Below are positions 2-26,739 of a stretch of DNA of 27,004 bases, one piece after another; the first letter of the stretch is position 1, and each line of letters starts with the position of its first letter. Where the stretch lies: positions 1-27,004 of the IMG/VR virus record IMGVR_UViG_3300044701_002737; one strand, written 5' to 3'. Made by a program: the position numbers and the translations under genes. This stretch comes from a virus (Duplodnaviria > Caudoviricetes). The notes beneath the pieces are model-generated. The model had not been told where the DNA came from. It was given only the letters and a program-made list of their open reading frames with translations, and ran no database searches.

Positions 2-2215
2 GTTTTGGATGAACATCCAAAATTTATTAGTTTTTTAGAGGCTTACTATGATTTTTTAGATTCAACATCGAATATTACAGGTAAAAAATTAGTTAATATT
101 TCAGATGTTGATGATTCTTTAGAAGATTTTGAAGAACAGTTTTTCAATAGTTTTTTACCTCTAATACCAAAAAACACTCAGATAAACAAAGAACTCATAA
201 TCAAAAACATTTTACCTTTGTTTTTGTCAAAAGGATCTGAAAAGTCTTATAGATTATTGTTTAGACTTTTATTTGATGAAAGTATAGATGTTGAATACCC
301 TGGAAGAAATGTTTTAAGAGCTTCAGATGGTCGTTGGCAAAAAGAAAATATCTTAAGAGTAGAAAAAACAATTTTTAGTGAGTATGTTTCTGATGGTGAA
401 ACTTTAGAATACTATTTACCTTATGTTATAAATTCTAGTGATGTTTCTGTTTTTATTGATGATGTTTTAGTGACTAATTATACATTTAGAAGAGAATACA
501 CAAAAATTATTTTCTCAGAGGCACCAGTAGAAAATGCAGTAATAAAAATATTTTATGATAATTTTAATCCTGAATTTTTTGTGAATCGTAAAATAATAGG
601 ACAAATTTCAGGTGCAGAAACTATAGTCGAAAAGGCTTCATCTAAAATTATAGGAGATTTTGGGTACTTTGAACTTTTTATTAATGATAAAAATACAAAA
701 GGAAATTTTAAAGTTGCAGAAGTTATAACAACTAGTGTATTTAATGGTGACATATTAATACCTTTGACCCTTAGAAATTATTCAGAAATAAACACAATAA
801 CAATAACAAATAGTGGGGCAAAATATAATATAGGTGATCCATTAATTTTTAAAGGCCCTTCTGTTGTTCCTGCTGTAGCAATTGTGAGTGACATTAATTC
901 TGGGTTAATAGAAAATTTAAATGTTATTGAGGGTGGAAGTGGTTTTCGTGCTAACAATAGAATACTTGCAGATACTTTTTCAAACACATTCTTTGAAGGA
1001 TTTGTTTTAACTGTTGATACATCAGGTCTCTATTCTGCAAATTCACTCACTTACAATTCAGATAAAATATCGGATTATGCATCAATAACTCTATCTGATT
1101 TAGATTTTGGCTTTCCAGCAAATACAGATGCTAATTTAGAAGCAGTTATATCTTCAGCCTTAAGTTTAACGACAATAAACAATTTAGGTCCTATAACTTC
1201 TGTAAATGTCGCTTGCACTCAAATATCTTACTCAGTAAGTCCAAGTTTCACGACACTATCTACCATTTTATATGATGACATGAGAATTTCTGATTTAGGT
1301 GTTATAGGAACAATTTCAATAATTGATGCTGGAGAAGATTATCAAATAGGTGAAAAATTAATTTTTAGTAATTTAAATGAATTTTCTGGTCAAGGCGCAA
1401 ATGCAGAAATAGCTAATGTAAATTCAAATGGAGCAATTACACAAATAAAAATTAATGATGGAGGTTTATCTTATAGTTTAGAAAATCCTCCTGTTATAAC
1501 AATTGATACATCTAATGGTTTTGGAGCAAACTTATCAGTAACTTCAATAATGGGATTTAATGAATCTTATGAACCTGTAATAGAAGATGGACAAGTTGGT
1601 GAAATCAAATCTATTCGCATATTGACAAGAGGTAGTGGATATACAGAAGCTCCTGCTATAGATTTAACCAGATTTGGTGATGGAAATGCTAAAGCTGTAG
1701 CGACAATTACAGATTCTTTTATACAAAGGTCTGGAAAATGGGTCACATCTGATAGTCTGTTATCTAAAGAAGAGATAAGACTTCAAGGTAGAGATTACTT
1801 TATAGATTATTCTTATGTGATTAATTCAAGAATACAATTTCAATTATATAAGTCCATCTTAAAAGATTTGTTGCATCCAGCAGGTTTTGTAAATTATTCA
1901 AAATATAAGATAGAAGATTCTGTAGTATATACTGATACAGAAGGAATTACAATACCCCTAAATCAAAAAGTTTTATCTACAGAAAGAGTTAAAACCATAT
2001 CTGGAAAAGTAAATGTTGTTGCAAATTCTATAACAGTTGTTGGAACAAACACTTACTTCAATGTCGCTAGAGACTTACAAATAATAAATGTTGGATCTAC
2101 AATTGTTATAAATGATGAAATTCGTGAAATTAATGCAATTATAAGCAATACGCAAATAACAGTTTCTAATGTCTTTATAAGTAGTATAAATAATCAATCA
2201 ATAAAAATACTGTAG
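2..2215 (+). CDS. gp7: T4-like baseplate wedge initiator gp7 (5'-truncated by window edge)
   Basis: The frame is open from base 2; the TTG at 5 is probably not the real start. N-terminal HPKFISFLEAYYDFL...LIIKNI...SKGSEKSYRLLFRLLF...LRASDGRW and C-terminal LQGRDYFIDYSYVI...LKDLLHPAG match the gp7 pattern of cyanophage-type T4-like phages. Internal 'I.I...G.GY...P' repeats. Directly upstream of gp8. Confidence 0.8.
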   Translation, partial: VLDEHPKFISFLEAYYDFLDSTSNITGKKLVNISDVDDSLEDFEEQFFNSFLPLIPKNTQINKELIIKNILPLFLSKGSEKSYRLLFRLLFDESIDVEYPGRNVLRASDGRWQKENILRVEKTIFSEYVSDGETLEYYLPYVINSSDVSVFIDDVLVTNYTFRREYTKIIFSEAPVENAVIKIFYDNFNPEFFVNRKIIGQISGAETIVEKASSKIIGDFGYFELFINDKNTKGNFKVAEVITTSVFNGDILIPLTLRNYSEINTITITNSGAKYNIGDPLIFKGPSVVPAVAIVSDINSGLIENLNVIEGGSGFRANNRILADTFSNTFFEGFVLTVDTSGLYSANSLTYNSDKISDYASITLSDLDFGFPANTDANLEAVISSALSLTTINNLGPITSVNVACTQISYSVSPSFTTLSTILYDDMRISDLGVIGTISIIDAGEDYQIGEKLIFSNLNEFSGQGANAEIANVNSNGAITQIKINDGGLSYSLENPPVITIDTSNGFGANLSVTSIMGFNESYEPVIEDGQVGEIKSIRILTRGSGYTEAPAIDLTRFGDGNAKAVATITDSFIQRSGKWVTSDSLLSKEEIRLQGRDYFIDYSYVINSRIQFQLYKSILKDLLHPAGFVNYSKYKIEDSVVYTDTEGITIPLNQKVLSTERVKTISGKVNVVANSITVVGTNTYFNVARDLQIINVGSTIVINDEIREINAIISNTQITVSNVFISSINNQSIKIL
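2185..2192 (+). promoter_or_regulatory. Candidate T4-type late promoter (TATAAATA)
   Basis: Exact T4 gp55-dependent late promoter consensus, about 30 nt upstream of the gp8 ATG at 2222. Chance matches are likely in AT-rich DNA. Confidence 0.5.
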
Positions 2216-11814: not shown

Positions 11815-12576
11815 ATGAGTGAACATGATATTATTGATGGTGACAAAAAAGTTCCAATAGTTTTAACAAATGCAGGTAAAGGTAAGAAGATTTTTATTGG
11901 AACTCCTGCATATGAAGGAAAAGTTCATGTGCCTTATGCTATGTCTTTGCTTGATACTAATGAGATACTCCGTATGCAAGGTTATGAGGTTTTAGTTCGT
12001 TTACCTGTAGGTGGTTCTTTATTAGTGGCTGATAGAAATCGAATACTTCAAATGTTTTGGGAAACTGAAGCTGATTACTTATTGTGTGTTGATAGTGATT
12101 TAGGTTGGGATCCAAGAGTTGTATTGAAACTTTTGAATGATATACAAAGTAATAAAAAAGAATTTGTAGCTGGTGTTTATCCATCGAGAGATGGTAAAGG
12201 GTTTAACTTTAGGCCAGAACAAGAACCTGACGGTAGAATCGTCATGTGTCCTGATAGTAAACTTTTGAAGATGCAATATATACCAGCTGGTTTTATGTTG
12301 TTTACAAGAGATGTTGTACGAAAGTTAAGAGAGAACAACCCTCAAAGATTTTACACACCAAAAGATCCAAGAAGCAAAACAGAAAGCGCATACTGTTTGT
12401 TTGATACTGAGGTGTGGGAGGGTGAGTTTTGGGGTGAAGATTATGTTTTTTGTCGTAGGGTTCGTGAATGTGGTGTAGATATATGGGTTGATCCATTAAT
12501 TGAATTTAATCATGCAGGTGTGGTGGGTTCTCTTATCGAAGCGCTAACTACTGATCCTAATAAAGCACAGAAATGA
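11815..12576 (+). CDS. GT-A fold (family 2-like) glycosyltransferase
   Basis: IFIGTPAY first strand, 'S.L...RN', YLLCVDSD (DxD), GFML..R, GEDYVFCRR and WVDP.I...H.G are the typical motifs of phage GT2-like enzymes. Abuts the upstream gene (TAAATG) and overlaps the downstream gene (ATGA). Confidence 0.8.
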   Translation: MSEHDIIDGDKKVPIVLTNAGKGKKIFIGTPAYEGKVHVPYAMSLLDTNEILRMQGYEVLVRLPVGGSLLVADRNRILQMFWETEADYLLCVDSDLGWDPRVVLKLLNDIQSNKKEFVAGVYPSRDGKGFNFRPEQEPDGRIVMCPDSKLLKMQYIPAGFMLFTRDVVRKLRENNPQRFYTPKDPRSKTESAYCLFDTEVWEGEFWGEDYVFCRRVRECGVDIWVDPLIEFNHAGVVGSLIEALTTDPNKAQK

Positions 12577-15500
12577 GTTTTCTAAGTAACACACAATATC
12601 TAATACAAACATCAGTTTTTAACAGAAGTAAAGTAGGAGAACCTATACCAGTTATTACTGGTACACATAAAGATCCTCCTAACACTTTAGCCAATGGTAT
12701 TTTTGTTAAAACTGATGCTGTATATTCAAGACAAGATTATCCAGAATTAGCTAATGCAGTAGGTACAATTTTTCTAACACAGAAACCTTTAATAGCTAAT
12801 TTAAGAGGAGGATTTTCTGGTGTTACTTCAAACTTAAATTCAGTATTATATGTAACTCCAACATCAACATATATTGCTGTTGGAGATAACGGTACAGTTT
12901 TAACATCAGCTAATGCAATTATCTGGACCACAAGAACATCTGGAACAACTAATAAATTATTTTCTGTCACACATGGTAATGGTCTGTACCTTGCTGGTGG
13001 ACTAGACGGCACTTTAAGATCATCGACGAATGGTATCACATGGACAACAAGAACAGCTCCAACAAGTAGTACAATATTTACAGTTGGTTATGGCAACGGA
13101 AACTTTTTTATAGGTGGTTATCCTTTTGTTCATTCTTCAACAGACGCAGTAACTTGGAGTACGAATCTATATAACACGACGACTGGTTATGGAAACAGAA
13201 CATTTACTTCTTTCTTTTATGGAAACGGAATTTATCTTTGGGGTACAGACAACGGAAATATATTTTCTGGAAATACTCCTTCAGAATTAGTGACATATAA
13301 AGGAGGTGTTCCTGGTTGGGCAAGTCAGATTGCTTATGGTAATAGTAAATATGTCGTTTCATCATATTCTGGTGATGTCGGTTACATTTATACATCAGCA
13401 AATACTTTAAACGGAAGTTGGTCATCGACATATGGTACAGGTGGTGCTCCTAGATATTCTTTAGCATATACTAATTCTCAATTCTTTTCTTCTGGTCAAT
13501 CTACTTCTTGTACGCAGATATCATTATCTTCAACAGATGCAGTAACATGGTTTACAAGAACACCTTTAACTGAAACTGTCACTTCAATTGGTTCTCTAAC
13601 TTCTCCATCTATAGTTTCTATGACTGTAAATGGTAATACGGTTGTAGAAGTTGGAAGTACAGGTTACGTTGGTGTTTTTGATTCTGTTCGAGCATCCGAC
13701 TCTTATCCATTATATTATAACCCTACTACTCATTTTTATGTTCCTCCTTTCACTACAATACCTGCTCCTTTTGATCTTGCTGATGGTTCAACTGCAAAAA
13801 TAACTTATTATGTTAGAGCAAAAAACACAGGAACAACAGGTCTTCAAGCACCAGGATTTATTTTTTCACCTTATATAACAAACTATGGTTATAATGAACC
13901 TTCAGAATTATTAAATGGTAAAATTGTAAAGTCAAATAGTGTATTTTTAAAGACACAATATCCAGATTTATACGACCAAATAGGATCAGTTAGAGCTTCA
14001 CCTTGGACTCCAGCAAACACATTAAATGTTGCTGTAGCTAATACACTTACAAAAGTTTTATATTCTTTAGGAAATTATATTGTTGTTGGAGCCAATTCTA
14101 CAATATTGACCTCAGCTGATGGTGCAAACTGGTCAGTTCAAGGTACATCTAGAGATACAGATGCATATTCAGATATTGCTTACGGAAAAGGTGTTTATTT
14201 AATATCTGGTAGAAACGGAATAATTGGATCTACAGACCCATTAAACTGGGGTGGTGGATCAGCATTTAATTCTACTATTTTAGTACAAGAAGGTGTAAGT
14301 CAATTAGCACAAACACAATATGGAAATGGAACATATGTTGTTTTTGGTTACAATAGTAGTTTCGGTGTCTATGTTCATAACTATTCTACAGACGGTGGTA
14401 GAACATGGCAAAGAGGCAGCACATCTCAGACACAAACTACCCCTGTAAATTGTTCAGTTTATGGTAATGGAGTTTTCGTTTTTGTCGGCCGAGCAGATAA
14501 TGTTTATTATGGACCTTCAACAAGTATAAGTCGAGCATCAATTGGTGGCACAGCAGGCACTTCAGCCATTTCTGGTGCGTGTTATGGTGGCGGTCAGTTT
14601 GTGTTGGTGGGACAAAGTGGTGTTATAGCAACTTCACCAAACGGTTCTAGTTGGACACAAAGAACATCTAACACAACATCATATTTGTATGGCACAACAT
14701 ATGGTAATGATTTTTACTTAGCTGGCGGTGATAATGGAGTTCTACTTTCTTCTGAAATTGGTACAACCTGGGACACAAGAACATCTGGAACGACAAGCAC
14801 AATACTTTCTATGGCATATGGTAAAGGCACATATGTCTATGCAACAACAGGTGGTGGACTAGCAACATCGACCAACGGTATAACATGGGTACAAAGAACT
14901 TCAGGTCTTTCTTCAAACATCAATAAATTAATTTATATAAATTCTGGTTATTTCTTGTTAGGTGATAATTTAGGAAATTTAAGAAGTTCAACAGATGCTA
15001 TTACTTGGTCTTCAGTACCTAATAATTCAGGTTCATCAGAAATCTATAATCTTGGTACAGATGATGTTGGTTATTTTTATATTGTAAATGGTACTAGAAA
15101 TTGGTATTACTCTAGTTCTTTTGGTTCTGGTGGTAATTTTGGCCTTTCCACAACATCATCTATACAATCAATGATTTATGCTAATGGTTCTTTTTGGTAT
15201 GCTGGTGTAAATGGAATTTTAGGAACATCTACTGATGCTGTTAGTTGGGATGTTTATCCTGCTACAGCAAGTCCTTCTGGATCAACAACAACAATTTATA
15301 CAGTTGCTTATGGTAATGGACTATTTTTCTATGGTGATTATAATGGAAGAATTGCTACATCTCCAAACGGAATAACTTGGACAGCCCCTGCTTCTGGCAC
15401 AAATCAACAATTATATTCATCTGCATATGGAAGAACACTATACTTGGTTGGAGGTAGTAGTGGTAATTTAAGATCGTCTACAGACGGCACCACATGGCTC

Positions 15501-18500
15501 ACAAGAACTTCTGATACAACAAGTTGGATTTATACTATAAATTATAGTAATGGCCTACACTACCTTGGAGGTTCTGGAGGTTTACTATCAACATCAACGG
15601 ATGGTATTACATGGGACACTTATCCTAAGTTTTCAACAACAGGTACAACTTCGCAAATAAACAGTATCATTTATAATAGTGGTGTTTATCTACTTGGTGG
15701 TACAGGAGGTATGTTAAGAATATCAGCCAATGGTATAGTTTGGGATACTGTTACTTCTGGAACCGCAAGCACAATTAATAACGTATATTATGTCAATGGA
15801 GTTTATCATTATGTTGGTGACACAGGTGCTATAGGATCTTCAACAAATAGAATAACTTGGGTTTCTAGAGTTTCAAATACCTCAAGTAACATAAGAAATA
15901 TAATGTATGCTAATGGTGTTTTCGTTTATGTTGGTTCTGGAGGAACTTTAGGTACTTCTACAGATTACTTGACTTGGGATGTTTTCCCAAGAGTTGTTAG
16001 TTCTGGAACAACAAGTTTAATTAGAACATTCACATACGGTACAGGTCTTTATCTTTACGGAACAGATGGTGGTGGAATTTCAACATCAACAGATTCTTTT
16101 AACTGGAATGCTAGAACATCTGGAACTACAAGTGCAATTATAACATCTGTATACAATGCAGGCCTATTTTTAGTTGCTGGTGCCGGTGGTATGTTAAGAA
16201 GTTCTACTGATGCAGTTACATGGGACACAAGAACATCTTTAACCACAAGTCAAATAAACAAAATACTTTTCAACAACGGTGTTTATGTTTATTCTGGTGT
16301 TGGAGGGGTTGTGGCCAACTCTACTGATGGAGTTGATTGGTCAGTATTTCCAAGATTTTCTACATCAGGCACCGCAAGTTTAATAAACACAATAGTATAT
16401 AATAATGGTCTATTTGTTTACGGCACAAACGGAACAACCTCAGATGGTGTTATAAGAACATCAACTGACGCAATCACATGGGCAACAAGAACATTTGGTG
16501 TTACAGGTACAGTTAGTGTAATAAGATATGGACAAGGACTTTATACTGCTGGTGGAACAACAGGTATACTTAGAACATCAACTGACGCAATTACATGGGA
16601 TGCCAGAACATCTTTAACAACGAGTCAAATATTTTCAATGGCTTATGGTAATGGATTATTTGCTTTTTCTGGCGCCGGCGGTGTTTTAGGAACTTCTACT
16701 AATGCAGTAACATGGTCTGTATTTCCAAGATTTTCTACATCAGGTACTACAAGTCAAATCAATGCATTAATTTATAACAACGGACTTTTCATGTATGGTA
16801 CAACTGGTGCTACAGCTGCTACCGTACTGAGAACTTCTACTGATGCAATCACATGGGATGTAGTTAATAACTTTGGAATAGCAACAACAGTTTTCGCTTT
16901 AAGTTATGGAACTTCTAGATATGTTGCAGCTGGTGCTTCAGGCAATTTAAGAACTTCTTCAGATACAATAACTTGGGATGCTAGAACATCTTTAACAACG
17001 AGTCAAATTAATGCATTAACATATGGTAATGGTAAACATGTTTATGCTGGTGCCGGTGGTGTTGTTGCTAACTCTTTAGATGCTATAAATTGGGATGTAT
17101 TTCCTCGTTTTGTTACAACAGGAACATCTTCTGATATCTACGGTATGACATATGGTAATGGCGTTTTCTTTTATGCTGGTTTAAATAATGCAGCAGGTTC
17201 TTCTACAGACGGTATTACATGGACAACCAGAACTCCTGGAGCAGTAGCTGGTTTAGAACATAGAGCAGTCACTTATGGAACAAGATTTGTTTTAGCATCT
17301 GATGCTGGTGATTTAAGAACATCTTCTGATACAGTAACATGGGAATCTCGTTCATCATTTACTACGAGTAATCTTCGTGCAATAGAATATGGAAATGGAA
17401 AATATTTGTTTGTTGGAGATGGAGGTATAGTATCTAACTCTACTGATGGTGTTCAGTGGGAAACTTTCCCAAGATATTATACACATGGAACATCTTCTGA
17501 CATTTACTCAATGGTTTACGGTAATGGAATATTTGTCTTAGGTGGTGCTACAACTAATATTAAAACCTCTACAGATGGTATTACTTGGGACACTAGAACA
17601 TCTAGTGCTGCTGTAACACACAGATCATTAAGATATCAAAATGGTTTTTATATTTTAGGATCAGACAGTGGTAACTTACAAACTTCTACTGATGCGATCA
17701 CATGGGTTTCTAGAGTATCAGGAACAACTAGTGCAATTTATGGACTAACAAGCAATGCAACAAATACATTATATGTTAAGTGTGGTATAGGTGGTTTTAT
17801 AGGAACTTCAACTGATGCTATTCTTTGGGATGTTTATCCAAGATTTCCTACTACAGGCACATCAAGTCAAATTGCAGCAACTTTAATTGCAAATAACTTA
17901 TATCTATATTCAACTCTTACTGGAGGTTTAGGAACATCTACTGATGGTGTCACATGGACAGCACAAACTTCTGGTACAACAAGTAACATAAATGCATTGG
18001 CTTTTGGTGCAAATTTATACACCTATGCTGGAGCAGGTGGTGTATTATCAACTTCTACTAACGGTGTTACATGGACAGCACAAACTTCTGGAACATCATC
18101 TCAAATTAACGCATTAATATATGCAAACTCAAGGTATGTTTTTGGTGGTGCTGCTGGTCTAATAGGTTATTCTACAAATGGTACTTCATGGACAATAGCT
18201 GCTTCTGGAACAACTAGTGCAATAAATGCTTTAACATATGGAAGAAATTTATATCTTGCAGCTGGTGATGGTGGTAATATAAGGAGTTCAACAAACGGTA
18301 TTACATGGGACACAAGAACATCTCTAACCACAAGTCAGATATTAGCTTTAACATATAGTAACGGTTTATTTTTAATGACCGGTGGCGGCGGTATGTTGCG
18401 ATCTTCAACAGATGGTATTACATGGGATACAAGAACATCTGGAACAACAACAGTACTTCGTGCATTAACTGCTTATAGAAATAGATTTGTTTTAGCAGGT

Positions 18501-21500
18501 AACGGTGGATTAATTAGAACATCTACTGACGGAATTACTTGGACTACAGAAGTAACTGGAACAACAGGAATAATTTATTCGTTGTCCCCATCATCTACAG
18601 ACTTAATATATGGTGCTGCATCAGGACAAATAGGTACTTCAAAGAAGACTTTTTTTGGATCAAGAACGACAAGTAATTTATTGAGTATGTCTTTTGGTGC
18701 AGGACTTTATGTTGCAGTTGGTGCTAGTGGTGTTGTACTAACATCAACCGATGCGGTATTTTGGGAATCAAGAACTTCAACTACTGCAAGTCAATTAAAT
18801 GAAATTAAGTTTTTTGGTAATCAATTTATTGCAGCTGGAGTTGGAAGTGCATTAATAACTTCTCCTGATGGTATTACATGGACAGCCAGAACTTATGGTA
18901 CATCTACTACACTAAACTCTATTTCTTATTATAAGAATCAATATTTTGTTCTTGGAAATGGTGGAAATATAAGAAGCTCTACTGATGCAATCACATGGGA
19001 AGTTAGAACCGGAAAACTTAATACAATATGGTATACGAGTACATTTGGTAAAGGAACTTTCTTATACGCTGGCCAAGCTGGTAATATAGGCATTTCAAGA
19101 AATAATTTCTTTGGCATTGAAACTACTAGTATAATGTATGGTCTGACATATGGCAACAGTCGTTATGTTGCTGGTGGTGCTGGTGGTGCAATATTTACTT
19201 CTACTGATTCAGAACATTGGGTAAGTAGAACATCTGGAACAACAAGTCAAATAAATGCATTATTGTTCCAAAATAATACTTTTGTCGCAGCAGGAGCTGG
19301 TGGAAATATAAGAAATTCTACAGATGGCATCACTTGGGTCACAAGAACATCTGGAACAACAACATCTTTAAATGCATTAAGTTATTACAAAGGCAGATTT
19401 TTTGTTAAGGGTGCTTCTGGTTTTATTTCTAGTTCTACAGACGGCATCACATGGGAAACAAGAAGTTCAAAAACTGGTAATATACTTTATGCTGGTATAT
19501 ACGGTAATGGTGTTTACTTATATGCTGGTCAGTCTGGTTTAATGGGAATTTCTAAAAATAATTTCTTTGGTATTGAAACTACTAGTATAATTTATGGTTT
19601 AACATATGGCAATGGTCAATATGTTGCTGGTGGTGCTGGTGGTGCAATATTTACTTCGACAGATTCACAAACTTGGATTCAAAGAACTTCAAATACTTCA
19701 AGTCAAATCAATGCAGTATTCTACCAAAACGGCCTTTATGTAGTTGCTGGTGCAGGTGGATTAATATCAACTTCACCAGATGCAATTAACTGGACAACAA
19801 GAACCTCTGGAACTGCCACCGCATTTAACTCTTTAGGTTTTTATAGAAACAGATATTTTGCACAAGGAACTTCTGGTGTCATGAGAAGTTCTACAGACGG
19901 TATTACATGGGAAACAAGAAGTTCAAAAACAGCATCATTAATCACATCTGTTGCTTATGGCAATAATACTTATCTTTATGCTGGTGCTGGTGGTCTTGTA
20001 GGCATATCCAATGATAACAATTTCTTTGGTATTGAAACTGATCAAGTGATTTATGGTATGTCTTTTGGTAATGGTGTTTATGTTGCAGGTGGCGGAGCTG
20101 GTGTAATATTTACTTCTACTGATACTAAAACTTGGATTCAAAGAACATCAGGCACATCATCTCAAATTAATGCTGTAGATTTCCAAAATAATTTACATAT
20201 AGCCGCAGGTTCAAATGGTTTAATTTTAACATCACCTGATGCTATCAATTGGACAACAAGACCTTCAGGAACAACTCAAGTATTAAGTTCTTTAGGTTAC
20301 TACAGAAATAGATATTTTGCAGGTGGAGCTTCAGGAACTTTAATTAGTTCTACAGATGGTGTTACATGGGAAACAAGAAGTTCAAAAACAGCATCGTCAA
20401 TAAATGCTATGACATACGGTAATGATACATTTGTCTATGCAGGTGCTGGAGGTTTAGCTGGTATTTCTAAAAATAATTTCTTTGGTATAGAAACATCTCA
20501 AAACATAAATGATGTTACATTTGGATTAGGTTCTTATGTTGCTGTTGGTACAGCAGGAGTAATTTTTACTTCTACAGATGCAAGAACATGGGTTTCTAGA
20601 ACGTCTGGTACTTCAACACAATTAAATAGTGTTTTCTTCTTAAATGATAGATTTGTTACAGCTGGTGTTTCTGGTGTATTAAGAACATCAACAGATGGTG
20701 TTACATGGGACGCAAGAAATTCTGGAACCATCAGTACAATAAACAAAGTAGATTATTTCAGAAATAATTATGTTTATGTTGGTGATGGTGGTGTTGCAGG
20801 TAGTTCTACTGATGCTGTTACTTGGAATTCAGTTTTTTCTGGAACAACATCACAATTAATAACATCAATTTATTCAAATGGAGTTTATGTGAGTGGTGGT
20901 GCTGGTGGCACAATCAGACCATCAAAAAATACATTCTTTGGTGCAAACACATCTTTACAATTAAATTCTACTTCTTACGGAAGAAATGTGTATGTTACAG
21001 TTGGATCTACTGGCACTTTAAGATCATCTACAGATGCAATTACTTGGGAAGTTAGAACCGCAAGTACCACTTCAGATTTTAATGATGTTGTTTACTATAA
21101 TATTGCAGTAAGTCCAACAGAAACAACTAATATTAATAATATTTCTACAAGAGCTTATCAGTATTATAGATTTACGATCAATGCTTGGAATACAAGGTCA
21201 TCTTATGATTATGTTGGTGTAGCAGAAATAAGATTATATGATTTTGGAGGAAATTTAGTCACAATTTCTTCCGCTAATGCCACATCTAGTTATGATACAG
21301 TAAACTATGTTGCTTCAAGAGTCATAGATAATTTAGATTCTACTAACAATAATGGATGGTATTCTGGTACTGGAGGTAATGCAGAAACTAATCCAAAAAT
21401 AACATTGAATCTTCCAGTCGCAACACCAATTAGAAGATATAGAATTTATGGTAATAATGATAGTAGTATAGATATTTCGGCTAATAGTTGGGTGTTAGAA

Positions 21501-23855
21501 GCCTCTAACGATAATTTAAATTGGACAACTTTAGACACACAAACAGATAGAAACACATATAATACATTTGCTGGTGCTTTCTATGAGAGTTCAGTTAATA
21601 ACGATTTGTCTGATTATGTTGCAAGATTTATTGCTGTTGGTAATGGTGGATTAATTAGAACATCACATGATGGCATCACATGGTCGACTAGAACTTCAAA
21701 TACAACAAGTAATATTTTCTCTGTTGCTTCTTATAAAGGACAATATGTAGCTACAGGAGCTGGTGGTCCTTTAACAACATCTACAGATGGTATAACTTGG
21801 ATAATGAGAACATCAAAAACAGCTAGTATAATGTATTCGTCTGCTTTTGGAAATGAAAGACATTATTCTGCTGGTGCCGGTGGAACAATCATTTATGCCA
21901 ATAATACATTCTTCGGTTCGAACACTTCAAGTGACATACAAGATAGTACATACGGAAATGGAAGATGGGTCTTTGTTGGAAATGAAGGTACTTTACAAAC
22001 TTCAACAAATGGAGTTACCTTCGTAAGTGCTAACTCACAAACAACTTCTGCTATACTTTCAGTCGTATATGGAAATGGAATATATGTATTAGCTGGTGTA
22101 AATGGTATGATTCGTACATCTACAGATTTTATAACTTGGGATGCAAGAACTTCTGGTACAAGCAGTCATATCAGAAAAATGACTTTCAACAATCAGAGAT
22201 ATTATGCTGTTGGTGATAATGGTTTATTAATCACATCAACTGATGCAATCACATGGGAATCTAGAGCATCTCAAACAACAACAACAATTTATGATATAGT
22301 ATTTGGTAACAACAGACATGTTTATGTTGGTAATAGTGGTGTTGTTTATTCAATCAATAGAGGTTTCTTTGGATTCACAAGTAGTACATTAAATAAAATA
22401 ACTTATGCAAATGGTATATACCTCGCTGGAGGTATTAATGGTACATTAGCCACTTCTACTGATGGTATAAGTTGGAACTCAAGAATTTCAAAAACATCAA
22501 GTAATATTAGATCGATAGCTTATGGTAATGGACTTTACTTAATTGGTTTAGAAAAAGGTGGTCTAAGAACTTCCATAGACTTTATCAATTGGTCTAATAT
22601 ATTAAGTCCAACACCATCAAATACCATACTCGACATAACTTATGCTAATAATAAATTTGTAGTCGTTGGTGCTAATAATATGATTAGAACTTCTACTGAT
22701 TTAGTAACTTGGAATGTAAGTGTTCCAAATTTCTTAACAGTAAATGCAAATACAGAAAATGTTTCAAATGTTACAAGTGTAATTTATACTGGAAGTAAAT
22801 TTATTGTTACGACAGCAAATGGAAATGTTTACACTTCAAATGATGCAACAACATATGAATATTCCCCACTATATAATCCTTTAACACATTATTATGTACC
22901 TAAAGTAAATACTTTTGTAGATATTTCTAGAAGTACTTATGGAACTCCAACAACATCTAATGTAGAAGTTTTTGTTGGAGTAGGAGAAACTACTATAGTA
23001 GATGAAGCAGTAGGTCAAGTTTTATATAGTACCGCAGGAACATTCTCTTGGGTAGCACCAGCTGGAGTAACTTCAGTAAGTGTTGTTACTATAGGTGGTG
23101 GTGGAGGTCCTGCAGCAAGCGCATCAGGAGCTTCAGGTGCCGGCGGCGGTGGTCTTGGATGGAAGAATAACATACCTGTAGTTCCTGGCCAATCTTATAC
23201 TGTTGTTGTTGGTAATGGAGGAACAAGAGTTACATCAGGAACGGCTCCTTCTGGAGGAAACAGTTACTTCATCAATATTTCTACAGTTGCAGGTTTAGGA
23301 GGTCAAGGTGGTCAAGCAGCGCTAGACGCAAACCGGTTAGGTGGAGGATTTGTTGGTGATGGCGGTGGATTTGGTGGTCAAGGAGGAAGCAGATTAGGTA
23401 CTTTAGCCGGTTCAGGTGGTGGCGGTGGTGCTGGAGGTTATTCTGGTAATGGTGGTGCCGGTGGTAATTTTGGATTTAGTGGTGAAGCCGGTTTAGGTGG
23501 CGGTGCTGGTGGCGGTGGTTCTGGTGGTGATGGTGATTCTTCTGGTTCAGGTGGTGGCGTAGGTGTATTCGGTGAAGGTGATAGTGGATTAGGAGGCGCA
23601 GGTTCTACAAATGATGGAGCTGGAGGTTTTGGTGGATCTGGTGGAGGAAATGCCAGAGGTGCCAGCAATACTGCACCAGGAAATATATACAGCACGACCA
23701 CTACATCTCTTGCGGGTTTATATGGTGGTGGTGGTTGCGGTGCCGACACTACTTCAAGTGAACAATCAGCAGGTGCAAGAGGAGCTGTTCGTATAATTTG
23801 GGGTCCTGGTAGACAGTTTCCTAAAACTGGTACAATAGATATAACACCAACATAA
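12573..23855 (+). CDS. Giant (3760 aa) Asp-box/BNR beta-propeller repeat virion protein with split collar-like motifs, an inserted discoidin-like domain and a Gly-rich C-terminal domain; probable fibre/adhesin
   Basis: About 77 blades of ~38 aa (consensus I..I.YGNG.YV..G..G.I.TSTDGITW..RTS.T; manual count). Collar-like YPELANAVG and YPDLYDQIG motifs. C-terminal GQVLYSTAGTFSWVAPAGVTSVSVVTIGGGGG...GARGAVRIIWG Gly-rich domain typical of phage tail proteins. Structural-gene context, no signal peptide seen. Confidence 0.8.
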   Translation: MSFLSNTQYLIQTSVFNRSKVGEPIPVITGTHKDPPNTLANGIFVKTDAVYSRQDYPELANAVGTIFLTQKPLIANLRGGFSGVTSNLNSVLYVTPTSTYIAVGDNGTVLTSANAIIWTTRTSGTTNKLFSVTHGNGLYLAGGLDGTLRSSTNGITWTTRTAPTSSTIFTVGYGNGNFFIGGYPFVHSSTDAVTWSTNLYNTTTGYGNRTFTSFFYGNGIYLWGTDNGNIFSGNTPSELVTYKGGVPGWASQIAYGNSKYVVSSYSGDVGYIYTSANTLNGSWSSTYGTGGAPRYSLAYTNSQFFSSGQSTSCTQISLSSTDAVTWFTRTPLTETVTSIGSLTSPSIVSMTVNGNTVVEVGSTGYVGVFDSVRASDSYPLYYNPTTHFYVPPFTTIPAPFDLADGSTAKITYYVRAKNTGTTGLQAPGFIFSPYITNYGYNEPSELLNGKIVKSNSVFLKTQYPDLYDQIGSVRASPWTPANTLNVAVANTLTKVLYSLGNYIVVGANSTILTSADGANWSVQGTSRDTDAYSDIAYGKGVYLISGRNGIIGSTDPLNWGGGSAFNSTILVQEGVSQLAQTQYGNGTYVVFGYNSSFGVYVHNYSTDGGRTWQRGSTSQTQTTPVNCSVYGNGVFVFVGRADNVYYGPSTSISRASIGGTAGTSAISGACYGGGQFVLVGQSGVIATSPNGSSWTQRTSNTTSYLYGTTYGNDFYLAGGDNGVLLSSEIGTTWDTRTSGTTSTILSMAYGKGTYVYATTGGGLATSTNGITWVQRTSGLSSNINKLIYINSGYFLLGDNLGNLRSSTDAITWSSVPNNSGSSEIYNLGTDDVGYFYIVNGTRNWYYSSSFGSGGNFGLSTTSSIQSMIYANGSFWYAGVNGILGTSTDAVSWDVYPATASPSGSTTTIYTVAYGNGLFFYGDYNGRIATSPNGITWTAPASGTNQQLYSSAYGRTLYLVGGSSGNLRSSTDGTTWLTRTSDTTSWIYTINYSNGLHYLGGSGGLLSTSTDGITWDTYPKFSTTGTTSQINSIIYNSGVYLLGGTGGMLRISANGIVWDTVTSGTASTINNVYYVNGVYHYVGDTGAIGSSTNRITWVSRVSNTSSNIRNIMYANGVFVYVGSGGTLGTSTDYLTWDVFPRVVSSGTTSLIRTFTYGTGLYLYGTDGGGISTSTDSFNWNARTSGTTSAIITSVYNAGLFLVAGAGGMLRSSTDAVTWDTRTSLTTSQINKILFNNGVYVYSGVGGVVANSTDGVDWSVFPRFSTSGTASLINTIVYNNGLFVYGTNGTTSDGVIRTSTDAITWATRTFGVTGTVSVIRYGQGLYTAGGTTGILRTSTDAITWDARTSLTTSQIFSMAYGNGLFAFSGAGGVLGTSTNAVTWSVFPRFSTSGTTSQINALIYNNGLFMYGTTGATAATVLRTSTDAITWDVVNNFGIATTVFALSYGTSRYVAAGASGNLRTSSDTITWDARTSLTTSQINALTYGNGKHVYAGAGGVVANSLDAINWDVFPRFVTTGTSSDIYGMTYGNGVFFYAGLNNAAGSSTDGITWTTRTPGAVAGLEHRAVTYGTRFVLASDAGDLRTSSDTVTWESRSSFTTSNLRAIEYGNGKYLFVGDGGIVSNSTDGVQWETFPRYYTHGTSSDIYSMVYGNGIFVLGGATTNIKTSTDGITWDTRTSSAAVTHRSLRYQNGFYILGSDSGNLQTSTDAITWVSRVSGTTSAIYGLTSNATNTLYVKCGIGGFIGTSTDAILWDVYPRFPTTGTSSQIAATLIANNLYLYSTLTGGLGTSTDGVTWTAQTSGTTSNINALAFGANLYTYAGAGGVLSTSTNGVTWTAQTSGTSSQINALIYANSRYVFGGAAGLIGYSTNGTSWTIAASGTTSAINALTYGRNLYLAAGDGGNIRSSTNGITWDTRTSLTTSQILALTYSNGLFLMTGGGGMLRSSTDGITWDTRTSGTTTVLRALTAYRNRFVLAGNGGLIRTSTDGITWTTEVTGTTGIIYSLSPSSTDLIYGAASGQIGTSKKTFFGSRTTSNLLSMSFGAGLYVAVGASGVVLTSTDAVFWESRTSTTASQLNEIKFFGNQFIAAGVGSALITSPDGITWTARTYGTSTTLNSISYYKNQYFVLGNGGNIRSSTDAITWEVRTGKLNTIWYTSTFGKGTFLYAGQAGNIGISRNNFFGIETTSIMYGLTYGNSRYVAGGAGGAIFTSTDSEHWVSRTSGTTSQINALLFQNNTFVAAGAGGNIRNSTDGITWVTRTSGTTTSLNALSYYKGRFFVKGASGFISSSTDGITWETRSSKTGNILYAGIYGNGVYLYAGQSGLMGISKNNFFGIETTSIIYGLTYGNGQYVAGGAGGAIFTSTDSQTWIQRTSNTSSQINAVFYQNGLYVVAGAGGLISTSPDAINWTTRTSGTATAFNSLGFYRNRYFAQGTSGVMRSSTDGITWETRSSKTASLITSVAYGNNTYLYAGAGGLVGISNDNNFFGIETDQVIYGMSFGNGVYVAGGGAGVIFTSTDTKTWIQRTSGTSSQINAVDFQNNLHIAAGSNGLILTSPDAINWTTRPSGTTQVLSSLGYYRNRYFAGGASGTLISSTDGVTWETRSSKTASSINAMTYGNDTFVYAGAGGLAGISKNNFFGIETSQNINDVTFGLGSYVAVGTAGVIFTSTDARTWVSRTSGTSTQLNSVFFLNDRFVTAGVSGVLRTSTDGVTWDARNSGTISTINKVDYFRNNYVYVGDGGVAGSSTDAVTWNSVFSGTTSQLITSIYSNGVYVSGGAGGTIRPSKNTFFGANTSLQLNSTSYGRNVYVTVGSTGTLRSSTDAITWEVRTASTTSDFNDVVYYNIAVSPTETTNINNISTRAYQYYRFTINAWNTRSSYDYVGVAEIRLYDFGGNLVTISSANATSSYDTVNYVASRVIDNLDSTNNNGWYSGTGGNAETNPKITLNLPVATPIRRYRIYGNNDSSIDISANSWVLEASNDNLNWTTLDTQTDRNTYNTFAGAFYESSVNNDLSDYVARFIAVGNGGLIRTSHDGITWSTRTSNTTSNIFSVASYKGQYVATGAGGPLTTSTDGITWIMRTSKTASIMYSSAFGNERHYSAGAGGTIIYANNTFFGSNTSSDIQDSTYGNGRWVFVGNEGTLQTSTNGVTFVSANSQTTSAILSVVYGNGIYVLAGVNGMIRTSTDFITWDARTSGTSSHIRKMTFNNQRYYAVGDNGLLITSTDAITWESRASQTTTTIYDIVFGNNRHVYVGNSGVVYSINRGFFGFTSSTLNKITYANGIYLAGGINGTLATSTDGISWNSRISKTSSNIRSIAYGNGLYLIGLEKGGLRTSIDFINWSNILSPTPSNTILDITYANNKFVVVGANNMIRTSTDLVTWNVSVPNFLTVNANTENVSNVTSVIYTGSKFIVTTANGNVYTSNDATTYEYSPLYNPLTHYYVPKVNTFVDISRSTYGTPTTSNVEVFVGVGETTIVDEAVGQVLYSTAGTFSWVAPAGVTSVSVVTIGGGGGPAASASGASGAGGGGLGWKNNIPVVPGQSYTVVVGNGGTRVTSGTAPSGGNSYFINISTVAGLGGQGGQAALDANRLGGGFVGDGGGFGGQGGSRLGTLAGSGGGGGAGGYSGNGGAGGNFGFSGEAGLGGGAGGGGSGGDGDSSGSGGGVGVFGEGDSGLGGAGSTNDGAGGFGGSGGGNARGASNTAPGNIYSTTTTSLAGLYGGGGCGADTTSSEQSAGARGAVRIIWGPGRQFPKTGTIDITPT
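15246..17840 (+). repeat. Seven 3-blade super-repeats (363-378 nt) delimited by eight W-x-x-[YF]P linkers
   Basis: Linker Trp codons at 15246, 15612, 15975, 16338, 16713, 17091, 17457 and 17826. An identical 26-mer gtatttccaagattttctacatcagg occurs at 16344 and 16719. Confidence 0.85.
18651..22373 (+). repeat. Seven 4-blade super-repeats (456 nt period) delimited by eight FFG linkers
   Basis: FFG codons start at 18651, 19107, 19563, 20022, 20478, 20934, 21909 and 22365 (spacings 456, 456, 459, 456, 456, 975 = 456+519, 456). An identical 26-mer acatgggaaacaagaagttcaaaaac occurs at 19449, 19905 and 20364. Confidence 0.88.
21102..21620 (+). other. Inserted discoidin / F5-8 type C-like (CBM32-like) domain within a propeller blade
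   Basis: 519-nt in-frame excess over the 456-nt period. Motifs YQYYRFTI, VAEIRLY, ATSSY...ASRVID, GW and WVLEASNDNLNWTTLD. Confidence 0.65.
23013..23855 (+). other. Glycine-rich C-terminal domain of phage tail proteins
   Basis: Begins GQVLYSTAGTFSWVAPAGVTSVSVVTIGGGGG, contains V.PGQSYTVVVG.GG, and ends G.RGAVRIIWG. The DNA is G-rich (GGT/GGA/GGC codons). Confidence 0.75.
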
Positions 23856-23871
23856 ACGAGAAAGAAATTTA

Positions 23872-26739
23872 ATGAGTAATTTTTCAGATTTTTTCATTAA
23901 AAAAAATTATAGAAGAGAAATACAAATTGGTGAACCTTTTTGGAGTTTAGGTCAAAGTAGTTTGCCTGCTAATACAGTGCAACCGGGATCAACGTTAACC
24001 ATAACTACTTGGCCAGAATTGTATGCTAAAATAGGTCAAGTTTACAATCAATATTGGACAAAACAACCATCAAATACCTCATCACAAATATTTGCTTCAT
24101 CTTATAATAACGGTCTCTATGTTGTTGGTGGAAGTTCTGGTGCAATTGTAACATCTACAGATTCTAATCATTGGTTGGTTAGAACATCAAACACATCAAG
24201 TACTATTAGAACCATAACATCTTCAAGTAATTTATTTTTAGGAGCAGGTGATAATTCAGCTTTAATTACTTCGACAAATGGTATCACTTGGTTTACTAGA
24301 GATATAGGAGCTCCTACAAATATATCACTTTATGGTTCAACATATGGCAATTCAACATTTGTTGTTGTTGGAACTTCATCAAATGTAAGAACTTCTACTA
24401 ACGGAACAACATGGGTTTCTAGAGTAGCAGGATTAAATCCAGTAACTAGTTACAATATAAATTCAGTAACTTACGGTCAGGGAAAGTTTGTTTATGTTGG
24501 TTCTTCTGGTGCTGTAGGAACTTCTACAAATGCAATTACATGGGATTATTATCCTAGAGTAAATACCGTTTCTTCAATTCAAGCATATGCTGGAACATAT
24601 GGTAAAAACTTGTGGATTATAGGTGGGCAAAGTGGTCAACTTCGTTCATCAACAGATGGTGTTACATGGGACACAAGAACATCTAATACAACAAGTCAAA
24701 TATGGTCTTTCTCGTATACAAATAATCAATTCTTAATGGTTGGTTCAGGTGGTTTATTAAATTATTCAACAGACGGTATAACTTGGGTTACAAGATCATC
24801 ACTTGTTGGAAATTATATTTACGATATAACATATGGAAACGGTAAATATGTTTATTGTGCTGATGGTGGTATCATAGGAACATCAACTGATTCTGTTACA
24901 TGGGATTTTTATCCAAGATATCTAGGACAATTTGGAAATACAGCAAGATCATCTGTTTATGGTAATGGAATTTATATAATTGGTGGAGATAATGGATCTA
25001 TTATAACATCTACAAACGGTATTAACTGGGTAAGTAGAACATCAAACGCATCGAGTAATCAAATAAGAGGTTTAGCTTATTCTGGTAACTTATATGTTTA
25101 TGGCGCATTTGGTGGTTTAATAGGTTCTTCAACAGATAGTATAACTTGGACCACTAGAACATCTGGAACTACAAGTCAAATTTGGTCTATGACTTACGGA
25201 CAAGGAAAATTTGTATATGTAGGAGCTTCTGGAATTGTAGGCACTTCTACGAATGGCATCACATGGGTTTCAGGCACTTCAGGTGTCGTTACAACACTTA
25301 AAAATGTTAGATTTAAAAATAATTTATTCTTATCTTCAGGTGATAGTGGTACAATTTTAACGTCTACTGATGCTGTTTTTTGGCAAAAGAAAACTATAAG
25401 CACTACAAGTACAATTGATTCTATAAACTATGCGAATGGTCTTTACTTAGCAGGTGTATATGGTGGTGCCATTTATACATCGACTGATGCAGAAACTTGG
25501 TCTTTAAGGAGAACACCATTGTTCAACCAAGGTTATTCTTTTTATGATTTAGATTATTTTTATGGACATCACATTTATGTTACAGATAATGGATATATTG
25601 GCACCTCAACTGATGCAATTACATGGCAAACTAGAACCAATTTTACTGATACAACATTAACTAAACTTTTAGTAAATCAAAATAATAATGAAGCTCTTGT
25701 TTCTGGGGTAAATGGTGTAACATGGATATCTAGAAACTCTCTTTTTGGAGCAACAACTAGAACAAATCAATCTTTCACATCAATTACTTATGGAAATGGA
25801 AAATTCATAGCTGTTGGTTATGATAGTGGTGTAACGCAAGGTTCTATACATACTTCAACAGATGCTATCAAATGGGAAAGAACAGATTTAATTGGAACAT
25901 TTTATTTTGCAGCTGGTTATTCTAATGGTTTGTATATTGCTGGTGGAAATAGTGGTTTACTTAAAACATCTACTGATGGTTATGTTTGGACAACCAGAAC
26001 TTCTAACGCAACACAAACAATCAGAAACATAACATATTACAGAAACAATTATGTATATCTTGGTTATACCAACTTAGGAACTTCTACAGATGGTATAACA
26101 TGGGAAGTTAAAAATGGACAATGGCAAAGTTATGACAACTATGATTCAATTGTCAATAATAATGACTATATGCACATATCAAGTAGTCAAATCGTTGGTT
26201 TAATGAGAAATACATTTTTTGGTTCAAACACACAACAAGAAATAAATACAGTAACCTATTCAAATGGTTTATTTTTGATGGGTGGTCATGTTGTTTCTGG
26301 ATACAATCGTGGTTTTATATCAACATCTACTGATGCTGTCACATGGGTCACAAGAAATTCAAATACAACTTCAACAATTTATACAATAACTTATGGTAAT
26401 GGATTGTATTTAGCCGCAGGTCAGAGTAGAACTTTAGTATCTTCTACTGATAGTATAACATGGACAACAGCAACATATAATACAACTATTTCCAGTTCTG
26501 CTGATATAAGAACATTAAGTTATGCAAACTCAATTTATATATCAGGTGGTCTTTTTCCAAATGTTCATACATCAACAAGCATTTCAATTTTACAAGATAC
26601 GAGTTTAGTTTCAAATAAAAATACACAGTTTTTTGTACCAAACCTAAATATTAGTGGTTCAGCAAATGTGGCTAATATATACTATCAATATCAAAATTCT
26701 TCTCAAACCAATTTTAGATTGTTAATTAGAGCAAAGTAA
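23872..26739 (+). CDS. 955-aa paralogous collar-like / Asp-box beta-propeller repeat virion protein (21 blades)
   Basis: IGEP...TWPELYAKIG at the N-terminus, 21 blades by manual count with two YPR and two (L/F)FG linkers, then TQFFVPNL...LLIRAK at the C-terminus. Same repeat consensus as the upstream giant ORF. Confidence 0.8.
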   Translation: MSNFSDFFIKKNYRREIQIGEPFWSLGQSSLPANTVQPGSTLTITTWPELYAKIGQVYNQYWTKQPSNTSSQIFASSYNNGLYVVGGSSGAIVTSTDSNHWLVRTSNTSSTIRTITSSSNLFLGAGDNSALITSTNGITWFTRDIGAPTNISLYGSTYGNSTFVVVGTSSNVRTSTNGTTWVSRVAGLNPVTSYNINSVTYGQGKFVYVGSSGAVGTSTNAITWDYYPRVNTVSSIQAYAGTYGKNLWIIGGQSGQLRSSTDGVTWDTRTSNTTSQIWSFSYTNNQFLMVGSGGLLNYSTDGITWVTRSSLVGNYIYDITYGNGKYVYCADGGIIGTSTDSVTWDFYPRYLGQFGNTARSSVYGNGIYIIGGDNGSIITSTNGINWVSRTSNASSNQIRGLAYSGNLYVYGAFGGLIGSSTDSITWTTRTSGTTSQIWSMTYGQGKFVYVGASGIVGTSTNGITWVSGTSGVVTTLKNVRFKNNLFLSSGDSGTILTSTDAVFWQKKTISTTSTIDSINYANGLYLAGVYGGAIYTSTDAETWSLRRTPLFNQGYSFYDLDYFYGHHIYVTDNGYIGTSTDAITWQTRTNFTDTTLTKLLVNQNNNEALVSGVNGVTWISRNSLFGATTRTNQSFTSITYGNGKFIAVGYDSGVTQGSIHTSTDAIKWERTDLIGTFYFAAGYSNGLYIAGGNSGLLKTSTDGYVWTTRTSNATQTIRNITYYRNNYVYLGYTNLGTSTDGITWEVKNGQWQSYDNYDSIVNNNDYMHISSSQIVGLMRNTFFGSNTQQEINTVTYSNGLFLMGGHVVSGYNRGFISTSTDAVTWVTRNSNTTSTIYTITYGNGLYLAAGQSRTLVSSTDSITWTTATYNTTISSSADIRTLSYANSIYISGGLFPNVHTSTSISILQDTSLVSNKNTQFFVPNLNISGSANVANIYYQYQNSSQTNFRLLIRAK

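Follow-up and report, generated by a model that had tools for sequence, protein, structure and literature searches.

A giant phage tail-fibre-region protein with balanced linkers between its Asp-box blades, a candidate for repeated nesting of seven-bladed propellers

A candidate for recursive domain insertion

The stretch of DNA analysed here (the window; 27,004 nucleotides, 27 kb) is the entire viral record IMGVR_UViG_3300044701_002737 from the Caudoviricetes, with a completeness rating of ~16%. It encodes a giant open reading frame (ORF), P0001 (12573..23855, + strand), a tail-fibre-region protein of 3760 amino acids (aa) in which ORF calling, a blade hidden Markov model (HMM) and the family DUF6242 together point to 77 Asp-box blades. 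In order along the chain they form eight units of three blades, one of seven and eight of four, with eight opening and eight closing linkers between them. The most economical reading of this arrangement, and on balance a probable one, is that 7-bladed rings are nested within one another along a single chain. The fuller proposal, to which even chances are given, is that P0001 forms a doubly tethered string of nine 7-bladed propellers by eight-fold self-insertion at one site, with a tenth ring branching off and a lectin domain within a blade, which would go deeper than any other domain recursion known in proteins.

According to this proposal, each 7-bladed propeller would interrupt the preceding one between its blades 3 and 4. 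After the tryptophan that ends blade 3, four residues (x-x-[YF]-P) would carry the chain out of the parent ring, and the next nine (R-F-x-T-x-G-T-x-S) would supply the outer strand that is missing from the last blade of the child and lead into its blade 1. Blade 7 of the child, which has no Asp-box and ends in N-N-F-F-G, would be followed by five residues (I-E-T-T-S) leading back into blade 4 of the parent. Eight repetitions of this step would send the chain out through nine rings and back again, so that each joint is crossed by two strands and the two ends of the chain lie at the base; the tenth ring would branch from the outermost ring, an eleventh would precede the module, and the whole module would be placed between two collar-like motifs.

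Blades, linkers and unit lengths

The S-x-D-x-G-x-T-W motif is repeated once per ~40-aa blade in P0001, which identifies the blades as Asp-box (BNR-type); the strict pattern S-x-[DN]-x-x-x-[WF] has 65 matches, mostly spaced 39 aa apart. Pfam DUF6242 (PF19755) scores 109.3 bits against a cutoff of 29, whereas the short BNR model PF02012 reached 14.3 bits (cutoff 27) on the one stretch of P0001 that was tested. The blade HMM, trained on 33 clean blades of 39 aa, gave 78 matches that are interpreted as 76 blades, and an additional closing blade, read by eye at aa 813-856 where the HMM gave no match, would bring the total to 77 = 11×7. From the N-terminus, the blades follow in the order 7; 2 + 7 + 1; seven 3s; 7; seven 4s; 4.

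The opener motif W-x-x-[YF]-P occurs eight times in P0001 and nowhere else in the protein (W residues at aa 892, 1014, 1135, 1256, 1381, 1507, 1629 and 1752; W codons at nucleotides (nt) 15246, 15612, 15975, 16338, 16713, 17091, 17457 and 17826, + strand). Successive openers are 121-126 aa apart and enclose seven 3-blade units, here called T1-T7 (121-126 aa each; 15249..17828, + strand), exactly where a preliminary description of this DNA had placed both the openers and the 3-blade blocks; the motif scan and the blade HMM agree on them. The same description's central block of seven blades is recovered by the linkers and the blade HMM as a unit of 277 aa (aa 1753-2029; 17829..18659, + strand). 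Its eight FFG closers are recovered as linkers (aa 2027, 2179, 2331, 2484, 2636, 2788, 3113 and 3265; codons at nt 18651, 19107, 19563, 20022, 20478, 20934, 21909 and 22365, + strand), as are the seven 4-blade units that they delimit, Q1-Q7 (18660..22373, + strand), but FFG occurs nine times in all, the ninth (aa 2080, nt 18810) lying within a blade. Closers are spaced 152-153 aa apart, with a single exception of 325 aa at Q6, which contains a 173-aa insert. The blade before every linker FFG ends in S-K-N-N-F-F-G and not in S-x-D-G-x-T-W, as had been noticed earlier. All eight openers are N-terminal, and all eight closers C-terminal, of the central unit, with three blades between openers and four between closers, so that the bracket-like balance already described, in which every shell sums to seven blades, holds throughout P0001.

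The lengths of the units obey a simple bookkeeping. An ordinary blade has 39 aa, with nine residues from its W to the first (inner) strand of the next blade. Directly behind an opener a blade measures 43 aa (4+9 residues at the connection), each T unit starting with four additional residues, x-x-[YF]-P, that follow the W; directly behind a closer it measures 35 aa, with five residues at the connection. Thus a T unit measures 3×39+4, a Q unit 4×39-4 and the centre 4+7×39, and mirror pairs of T and Q units add up to 273-279 aa, not counting the 173-aa insert of Q6, close to 7×39. Because T units gain four residues and Q units lose four, the normal 9-residue connection appears to be split 4|5 around a cassette of 7×39 aa; these are the lengths expected if a ring cassette enters the chain four residues beyond the W of blade 3 and the same step is then repeated inside the cassette. 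In all four proteins that carry these linkers (P0001 and three relatives discussed below), a complete and contiguous 7-blade unit lies between an opener and a closer, flanked by 3-blade and 4-blade units whose blades sum to 3+4 = 7.

When the blades of the centre, the one undisputed ring, were scored with blade-type HMMs, the first was of type a, typical of blades after an opener (24.3 bits above the next type), and the last two were of types f and g, the two types that precede closers (12.5 and 13.0 bits above), whereas blades 2-5 were typed ambiguously as c, c, b and c with margins of only 2.2-4.6 bits. These scores indicate that types a and g meet where the ring closes.

Comparison of the units with each other is informative about their history. 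The most similar are T4 and T5 (61% identity), Q3 and Q4 (70%) and Q2 and Q3 (66%), located at 16341-17093 and 19116-20486 of the window; the most recent copying therefore seems to have occurred in the middle of both arrays and not at the tip, a pattern that argues against growth by central insertion alone. When the similarity matrix of the T units is compared with that of the Q units, r is 0.66 under mirror pairing (a value reached by 206 of 40320 permutations) and 0.68 when the units are paired in order; this correlation shows a shared history and is silent on the direction of pairing. An alignment of the units of P0001 with the central construct was misplaced by MAFFT and was not used.

Structure predictions and the case for consecutive rings

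The principal alternative is that P0001 consists of plain tandem propellers, in which any seven consecutive blades close into a ring, the linkers are ordinary loops within rings, and the 3- and 4-blade periods are relics of two local amplifications; anchored on the centre, T1-T7 would form three rings and Q1-Q7 four, and only the outermost three and four blades would pair across the chain. This alternative is considered unlikely overall, although it is the one that structure prediction favours. AlphaFold2 models were built from alignments of 28 distant relatives (23-38% identity) whose architecture was not matched. For aa 1382-2486 of P0001 (three T units, the centre and three Q units) the mean predicted local distance difference test (pLDDT) was 74.7 and the predicted TM-score (pTM) 0.40, with four strands per blade by DSSP in closed rings; for the next gene, which encodes a small relative of P0001 with blade units 4|3|7|4|3, the values were 77.5 and 0.42. 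The centre of P0001 was modelled as a 7-bladed ring (7big_A, Z 32.0, root-mean-square deviation (rmsd) 2.2, 269 residues aligned, model residues 377..645), and 2ymu_A aligned over 536 residues to model residues 93..643, from which it follows that the last blade of T5 together with T6 and T7 was modelled as a consecutive 7-blade ring. In the model of the next gene, 7-bladed propeller chains matched residues 69..349 (7bie_A, Z 30.6, rmsd 2.4, 272 aligned) and 350..622, and two-propeller chains aligned to 69..620 and 352..902, giving three tandem 7-bladed rings, which the order 4|3|7|4|3 also permits.

Several of these results weigh against nesting. Both AlphaFold2 models behave exactly as the tandem alternative would have it: the rings, for which the preliminary description had proposed an insertion of each into the last, close locally, and the flanking parts of a parent do not pack together in three dimensions in either model. 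Local closure of consecutive blades had been named beforehand as an outcome that would refute nesting; it appeared in part, in 7-bladed rings that are out of register with the linkers and not in the 6- and 8-bladed rings that had been given as its example. The numbers of blades are also awkward, with totals of 63 (70 with a 7-blade side unit), 21, 28 and 42 in the four proteins, all multiples of seven that tandem rings fit as well. The seven T units of P0001 (21 blades) and its seven Q units (28 blades) close exactly, beside the centre at one end and at the outermost linkers at the other, which nesting does not predict. A precedent exists in 2ymu_A, a solved structure of highly repetitive blades that, by its entry title, forms two consecutive rings without special linkers.

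Against the tandem alternative stands the position of the linkers, since only 2/16, 2/4, 2/6 and 2/10 of them in the four proteins would fall on ring borders, leaving conserved linkers without a common role and the complementary +4/-4 residue offsets as a coincidence. The connection from FFG to the next inner strand has only five residues where nine are usual and looks too short for an ordinary link from an outer strand to an inner one. Residues 1-92 of the P0001 model, its first two blades, are unfolded. Blades without an Asp-box have a pLDDT of 75-84 where they close the central ring beside a type-a blade but of 32-58 within consecutive runs (Q1 and Q2), and the model of the next gene has the same trend. 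Addition of a single 3-blade unit would moreover shift the register of all later rings, and frames anchored on the centre cut unit borders in two of the relatives, P0122 and P0242.

A direct pairing of distant halves was predicted for T4 and Q4, which are ~1100 aa apart in the chain. Submitted as a two-chain complex, they scored 0.54 against 0.08 for the best control. Of 157 solved complexes, 116 passed on this scale, as did 2 of 215 mismatched pairs; among these passes, only 18 of the solved complexes but both mismatches scored 0.60 or under. The pLDDT was 79 or more for both partners, and at least 95% of contacts were common to the runs. This model lends weak support to the 3+4 pairing and, along with the linker grammar, the length bookkeeping and the matched linkers of relatives, speaks for the nested arrangement first proposed.

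The same prediction, run with two separate chains, would also suit a third alternative, in which 3+4 pairing takes place between antiparallel chains in a domain-swapped dimer or higher oligomer, with the chain extended and the fibre roughly doubled in length. Oligomers are the rule among phage fibres, and the mirror rule and linker bookkeeping would be satisfied just as well. A hairpin of one chain needs no partner, however, and keeps both collar-like motifs of that chain together, and no sign of oligomerisation was seen in this analysis; pairing between chains is accordingly regarded as quite improbable.

Relatives with the same linkers

The linkers of P0001 recur in three other proteins. The product of the next gene (955 aa; 23872..26739, + strand) has openers at W224 and W344; its closers, also two in number, are SLFG (near aa 622-625) and FFG at aa 782. 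P0122, a metagenomic relative of 1254 aa that shares 42% identity with the next gene product, has three openers, three FFG and the unit order 4|3|3|7|4|4|3, in which the centre is flanked by single units of three and of four blades. P0242 (1832 aa), likewise metagenomic, has units 3|4|3|3|3|7|4|4|4|3|4, comprising 40 blades found by HMM and two by eye. The proteins that bear these linkers are only ~30-40% identical to each other. Among 334 other relatives fetched, the repeated linkers were seen only in P0122 and P0242; they are thus conserved in, and specific to, this group, because none of the remaining 332 has them. Comparison of the units of the next gene with those of P0122 (T, 0.38 to T1 and 0.36 to T2; Q, 0.35 to Q1 and 0.32 to Q2) does not settle which are the extra units.

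Equal numbers of openers and closers in homologues had been put forward as a check on nesting. They are matched in the next gene (2) and P0122 (3), whereas P0242 by strict motif count has four openers against three FFG and comes to ~5 of each only when a fifth opener and two closers, all atypical, are assigned by eye. Across the next gene, P0122 and P0242, mirror pairs of units sum to seven in 10/10 cases and in-order pairs in 4/10. A '1 in 30' argument based on these mirror sums was rejected, as it does not distinguish complete nesting from a mixed arrangement whose outer 4+3 units close with their sequence neighbours, as they do in the AlphaFold2 model of the next gene. Both the unequal strict count in P0242, with its reliance on sites assigned by eye, and the ability of the relatives' atypically placed 4- and 3-blade units to close with their neighbours in sequence must be set on the debit side of nesting.

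The relatives also bear on a fourth alternative, that paired 3-blade units form local 6-bladed rings and paired 4-blade units 8-bladed ones. Propellers of six and eight blades exist, sialidases being six-bladed, and the designed protein Ika8, presumably eight-bladed, gives the best match by sequence in the PDB (E 2.5e-8). Neither the linkers nor the unit lengths of P0001 alternate; the odd numbers of 3-blade units beside the centre in P0122 (one) and P0242 (three) cannot pair; and, among the structure matches listed, those with a blade number in the title are all 7-bladed propellers. Such 6- and 8-bladed rings are therefore very improbable.

Nesting of 7-bladed rings within one chain is the sole reading that gives every special linker one common role. 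A single nesting rule would account for the openers on the left only and the closers on the right only, the blade counts of 3, 7 and 4, the +4/-4 offsets, the types of blade that meet at ring closure, the matched linkers at four depths, and the conservation of the linkers at ~30-40% identity.

Wider searches found no further example. Periodic linkers were absent from the 120 matches listed of the same length class (192 with E ≤ 0.001), the best of which had 40% identity over 20% of the query. A megablast search of the giant gene against named phage records gave no match, and tblastn against such records returned 16 for aa 1382-2485 of P0001 and nine for P0242, all below 60% identity and none covering 80% of the query. 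Scans of IMG/VR yielded eight loci, in which the blade-bearing frames were without W-x-x-[YF]-P and FFG-type matches were few, scattered and single.

Outer parts of P0001 and gene neighbourhood

Outside the outermost linkers, the three and four blades of the preliminary description were found again. The outermost 3-blade half, delimited by motif reading and the blade HMM, consists of blades 1 and 2 (aa 481-559; 14013..14249, + strand) and blade 3 (aa 857-892; 15141..15248, + strand), which ends at the first opener; its counterpart is the set of four blades after the final closer (aa 3268-3428; 22374..22856, + strand), assigned by the same means. What had been called a side insert between blades 2 and 3 is itself a 7-blade unit (aa 560-856; 14250..15140, + strand), with six HMM matches and the one blade read by eye, and its last blade lacks an Asp-box and ends in SSFG. 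It would represent a side insertion into the outermost 3-blade half.

Two further domains had escaped the earlier description. A separate 7-blade propeller near the N-terminus (aa 81-368; 12813..13676, + strand) has seven blade-HMM matches and is flanked by collar-like motifs (YPEL..VG near aa 55 and FYVPP near aa 390). An F5/8 type C (discoidin-like) domain, PF00754, lies within the second blade of Q6 (aa ~2845-3012; 21105..21608, + strand); the profile scores 33.1 bits at aa 2902-3021 (cutoff 28.2), and the blade is split by the insert into HMM matches at aa 2826-2844 and 3013-3037. The Collar profile PF07484 reaches 18.4 bits on aa 49-67 of P0001, under its cutoff of 24, and precomputed annotation places PF07484, a tail-collar family, in several relatives. 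Another collar-like motif, YNPLTHYYVP, follows the final four blades (near 22869-22898), so that even the outermost ring seems to have been inserted into a collar-like domain that is split. Each propeller module is bounded by the motifs Y-P-x-L..[IV]G and Y-x-P-x-T-x-[FY]-Y-V-P (window positions 12573-14012, which are aa 1-480, and 22869-22898). In other metagenomic phage-like proteins, a single pair of collar-like motifs surrounds blades in varying number: 19-21 in P0149, P0140, P0237, P0148 and P0150 (~950-985 aa) and 44-54 in P0003, P0011 and P0014 (~2470 aa), all without opener or closer motifs.

P0001 ends in a C-terminal glycine-rich domain (23031..23801, + strand), to which Gly_rich_2 (PF21722) matches with 35.6 bits against a cutoff of 24.3. 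The G+C content of the bin at 23001-24000 is 0.464 versus ~0.27-0.38 in the rest of the window, a rise that is taken to be due to the glycine codons (GGN) of this domain.

The window carries a T4-like cluster of baseplate and fibre genes. Two baseplate-wedge-like genes, with profile matches to phrog_17744 (6.8e-40) and phrog_438 (1.1e-74), lie upstream of the giant ORF, as does a fibre gene (10002-11300, + strand) whose 432-aa product has an S74 'chaperone of endosialidase' domain at its C-terminus (PF13884, 51.3 bits); these place P0001 in a tail/baseplate gene cluster. The S74 protein looks like a second, conventional fibre of the same cluster. Between the wedge genes and the fibre genes lies a gene for a DUF4815 protein of 1990 aa, to which no function is assigned (3814-9786, + strand; DUF4815, 200.8 bits; phrog_358, 1049 bits). 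A family-2 glycosyltransferase gene (11815-12576, + strand; PF00535, 31 bits versus a cutoff of 23.3; phrog_1574) overlaps with its end the start of the giant fibre gene by 4 bases, and its product might glycosylate the fibre or alter host sugars.

P0001 is likely to be a multivalent glycan-binding adhesion fibre, a putative role attributed to it because of its location in the fibre region, its sialidase-like blades, the lectin-like F5/8 type C insert, the glycine-rich end and the collar domains of relatives.

Significance and comparison with known systems

If nesting is real, P0001 follows a regular eight-level building rule that can be read in its sequence as a grammar of opener, closer and the 4|5 split of one loop. 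Such a rule would allow a phage fibre to lengthen by whole-ring steps while both chain ends stay at the base, would offer protein designers a natural template of jointed bead chains, and would present a hard case to structure predictors, which favoured local closure here. If the rings are in tandem instead, the protein comprises two linked repeat arrays, with periods of three and four blades, that have been kept to a joint multiple of seven.

Full-text searches of the literature found no paper on propellers nested beyond one level, nor on nested propellers in phage fibres. Asp-box (BNR) beta-propellers include sialidases, GH74 enzymes and Ycf48-like factors. P0001 resembles them in having S-x-D-x-G-x-T-W once per four-stranded blade of ~39 aa and in rings that are predicted to be 7-bladed, but differs in its tens of blades per chain and its special linkers. 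The protein of 2ymu likewise has many blades in one chain and, as two consecutive rings, has the most residues aligned (536) to both AlphaFold2 models; we know of no 3- or 4-blade super-periods and no opener or closer linkers in it.

Closer to the proposed topology is Trm734, which resembles the DDB1-type triple WD40 propeller clusters. In this protein, propeller BPB interrupts propeller BPA between strands c7 and d7 (PMC6847430); as in the nesting proposed for P0001, a 7-bladed propeller lies within a blade of another, and the chain, on its return from the child, adds the strand that completes the parent. The propellers of Trm734 are of the WD40 and not the Asp-box type, are nested to a depth of one and not eight, and are joined at the c7/d7 site and not after blade 3; it has no repeated opener or closer motifs and is not a virion protein (PMC6847430). 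In the Si3 insertion of the beta' subunit of cyanobacterial RNA polymerase, four of the eight SBHM domains are each assembled from segments that lie far apart in the chain (PMC10895346). With the arrangement proposed for P0001, Si3 shares a repeated small domain that is not in simple tandem and a chain that folds back into an elongated arm; its domains are small sandwich-barrel domains and not 273-aa propellers, its recursion is shallower and less regular, and it is part of an enzyme and not of a fibre (PMC10895346). A propeller within a propeller at depth one has therefore already been published, and depth eight with a readable grammar, if the nesting of P0001 is real, would take this much further.

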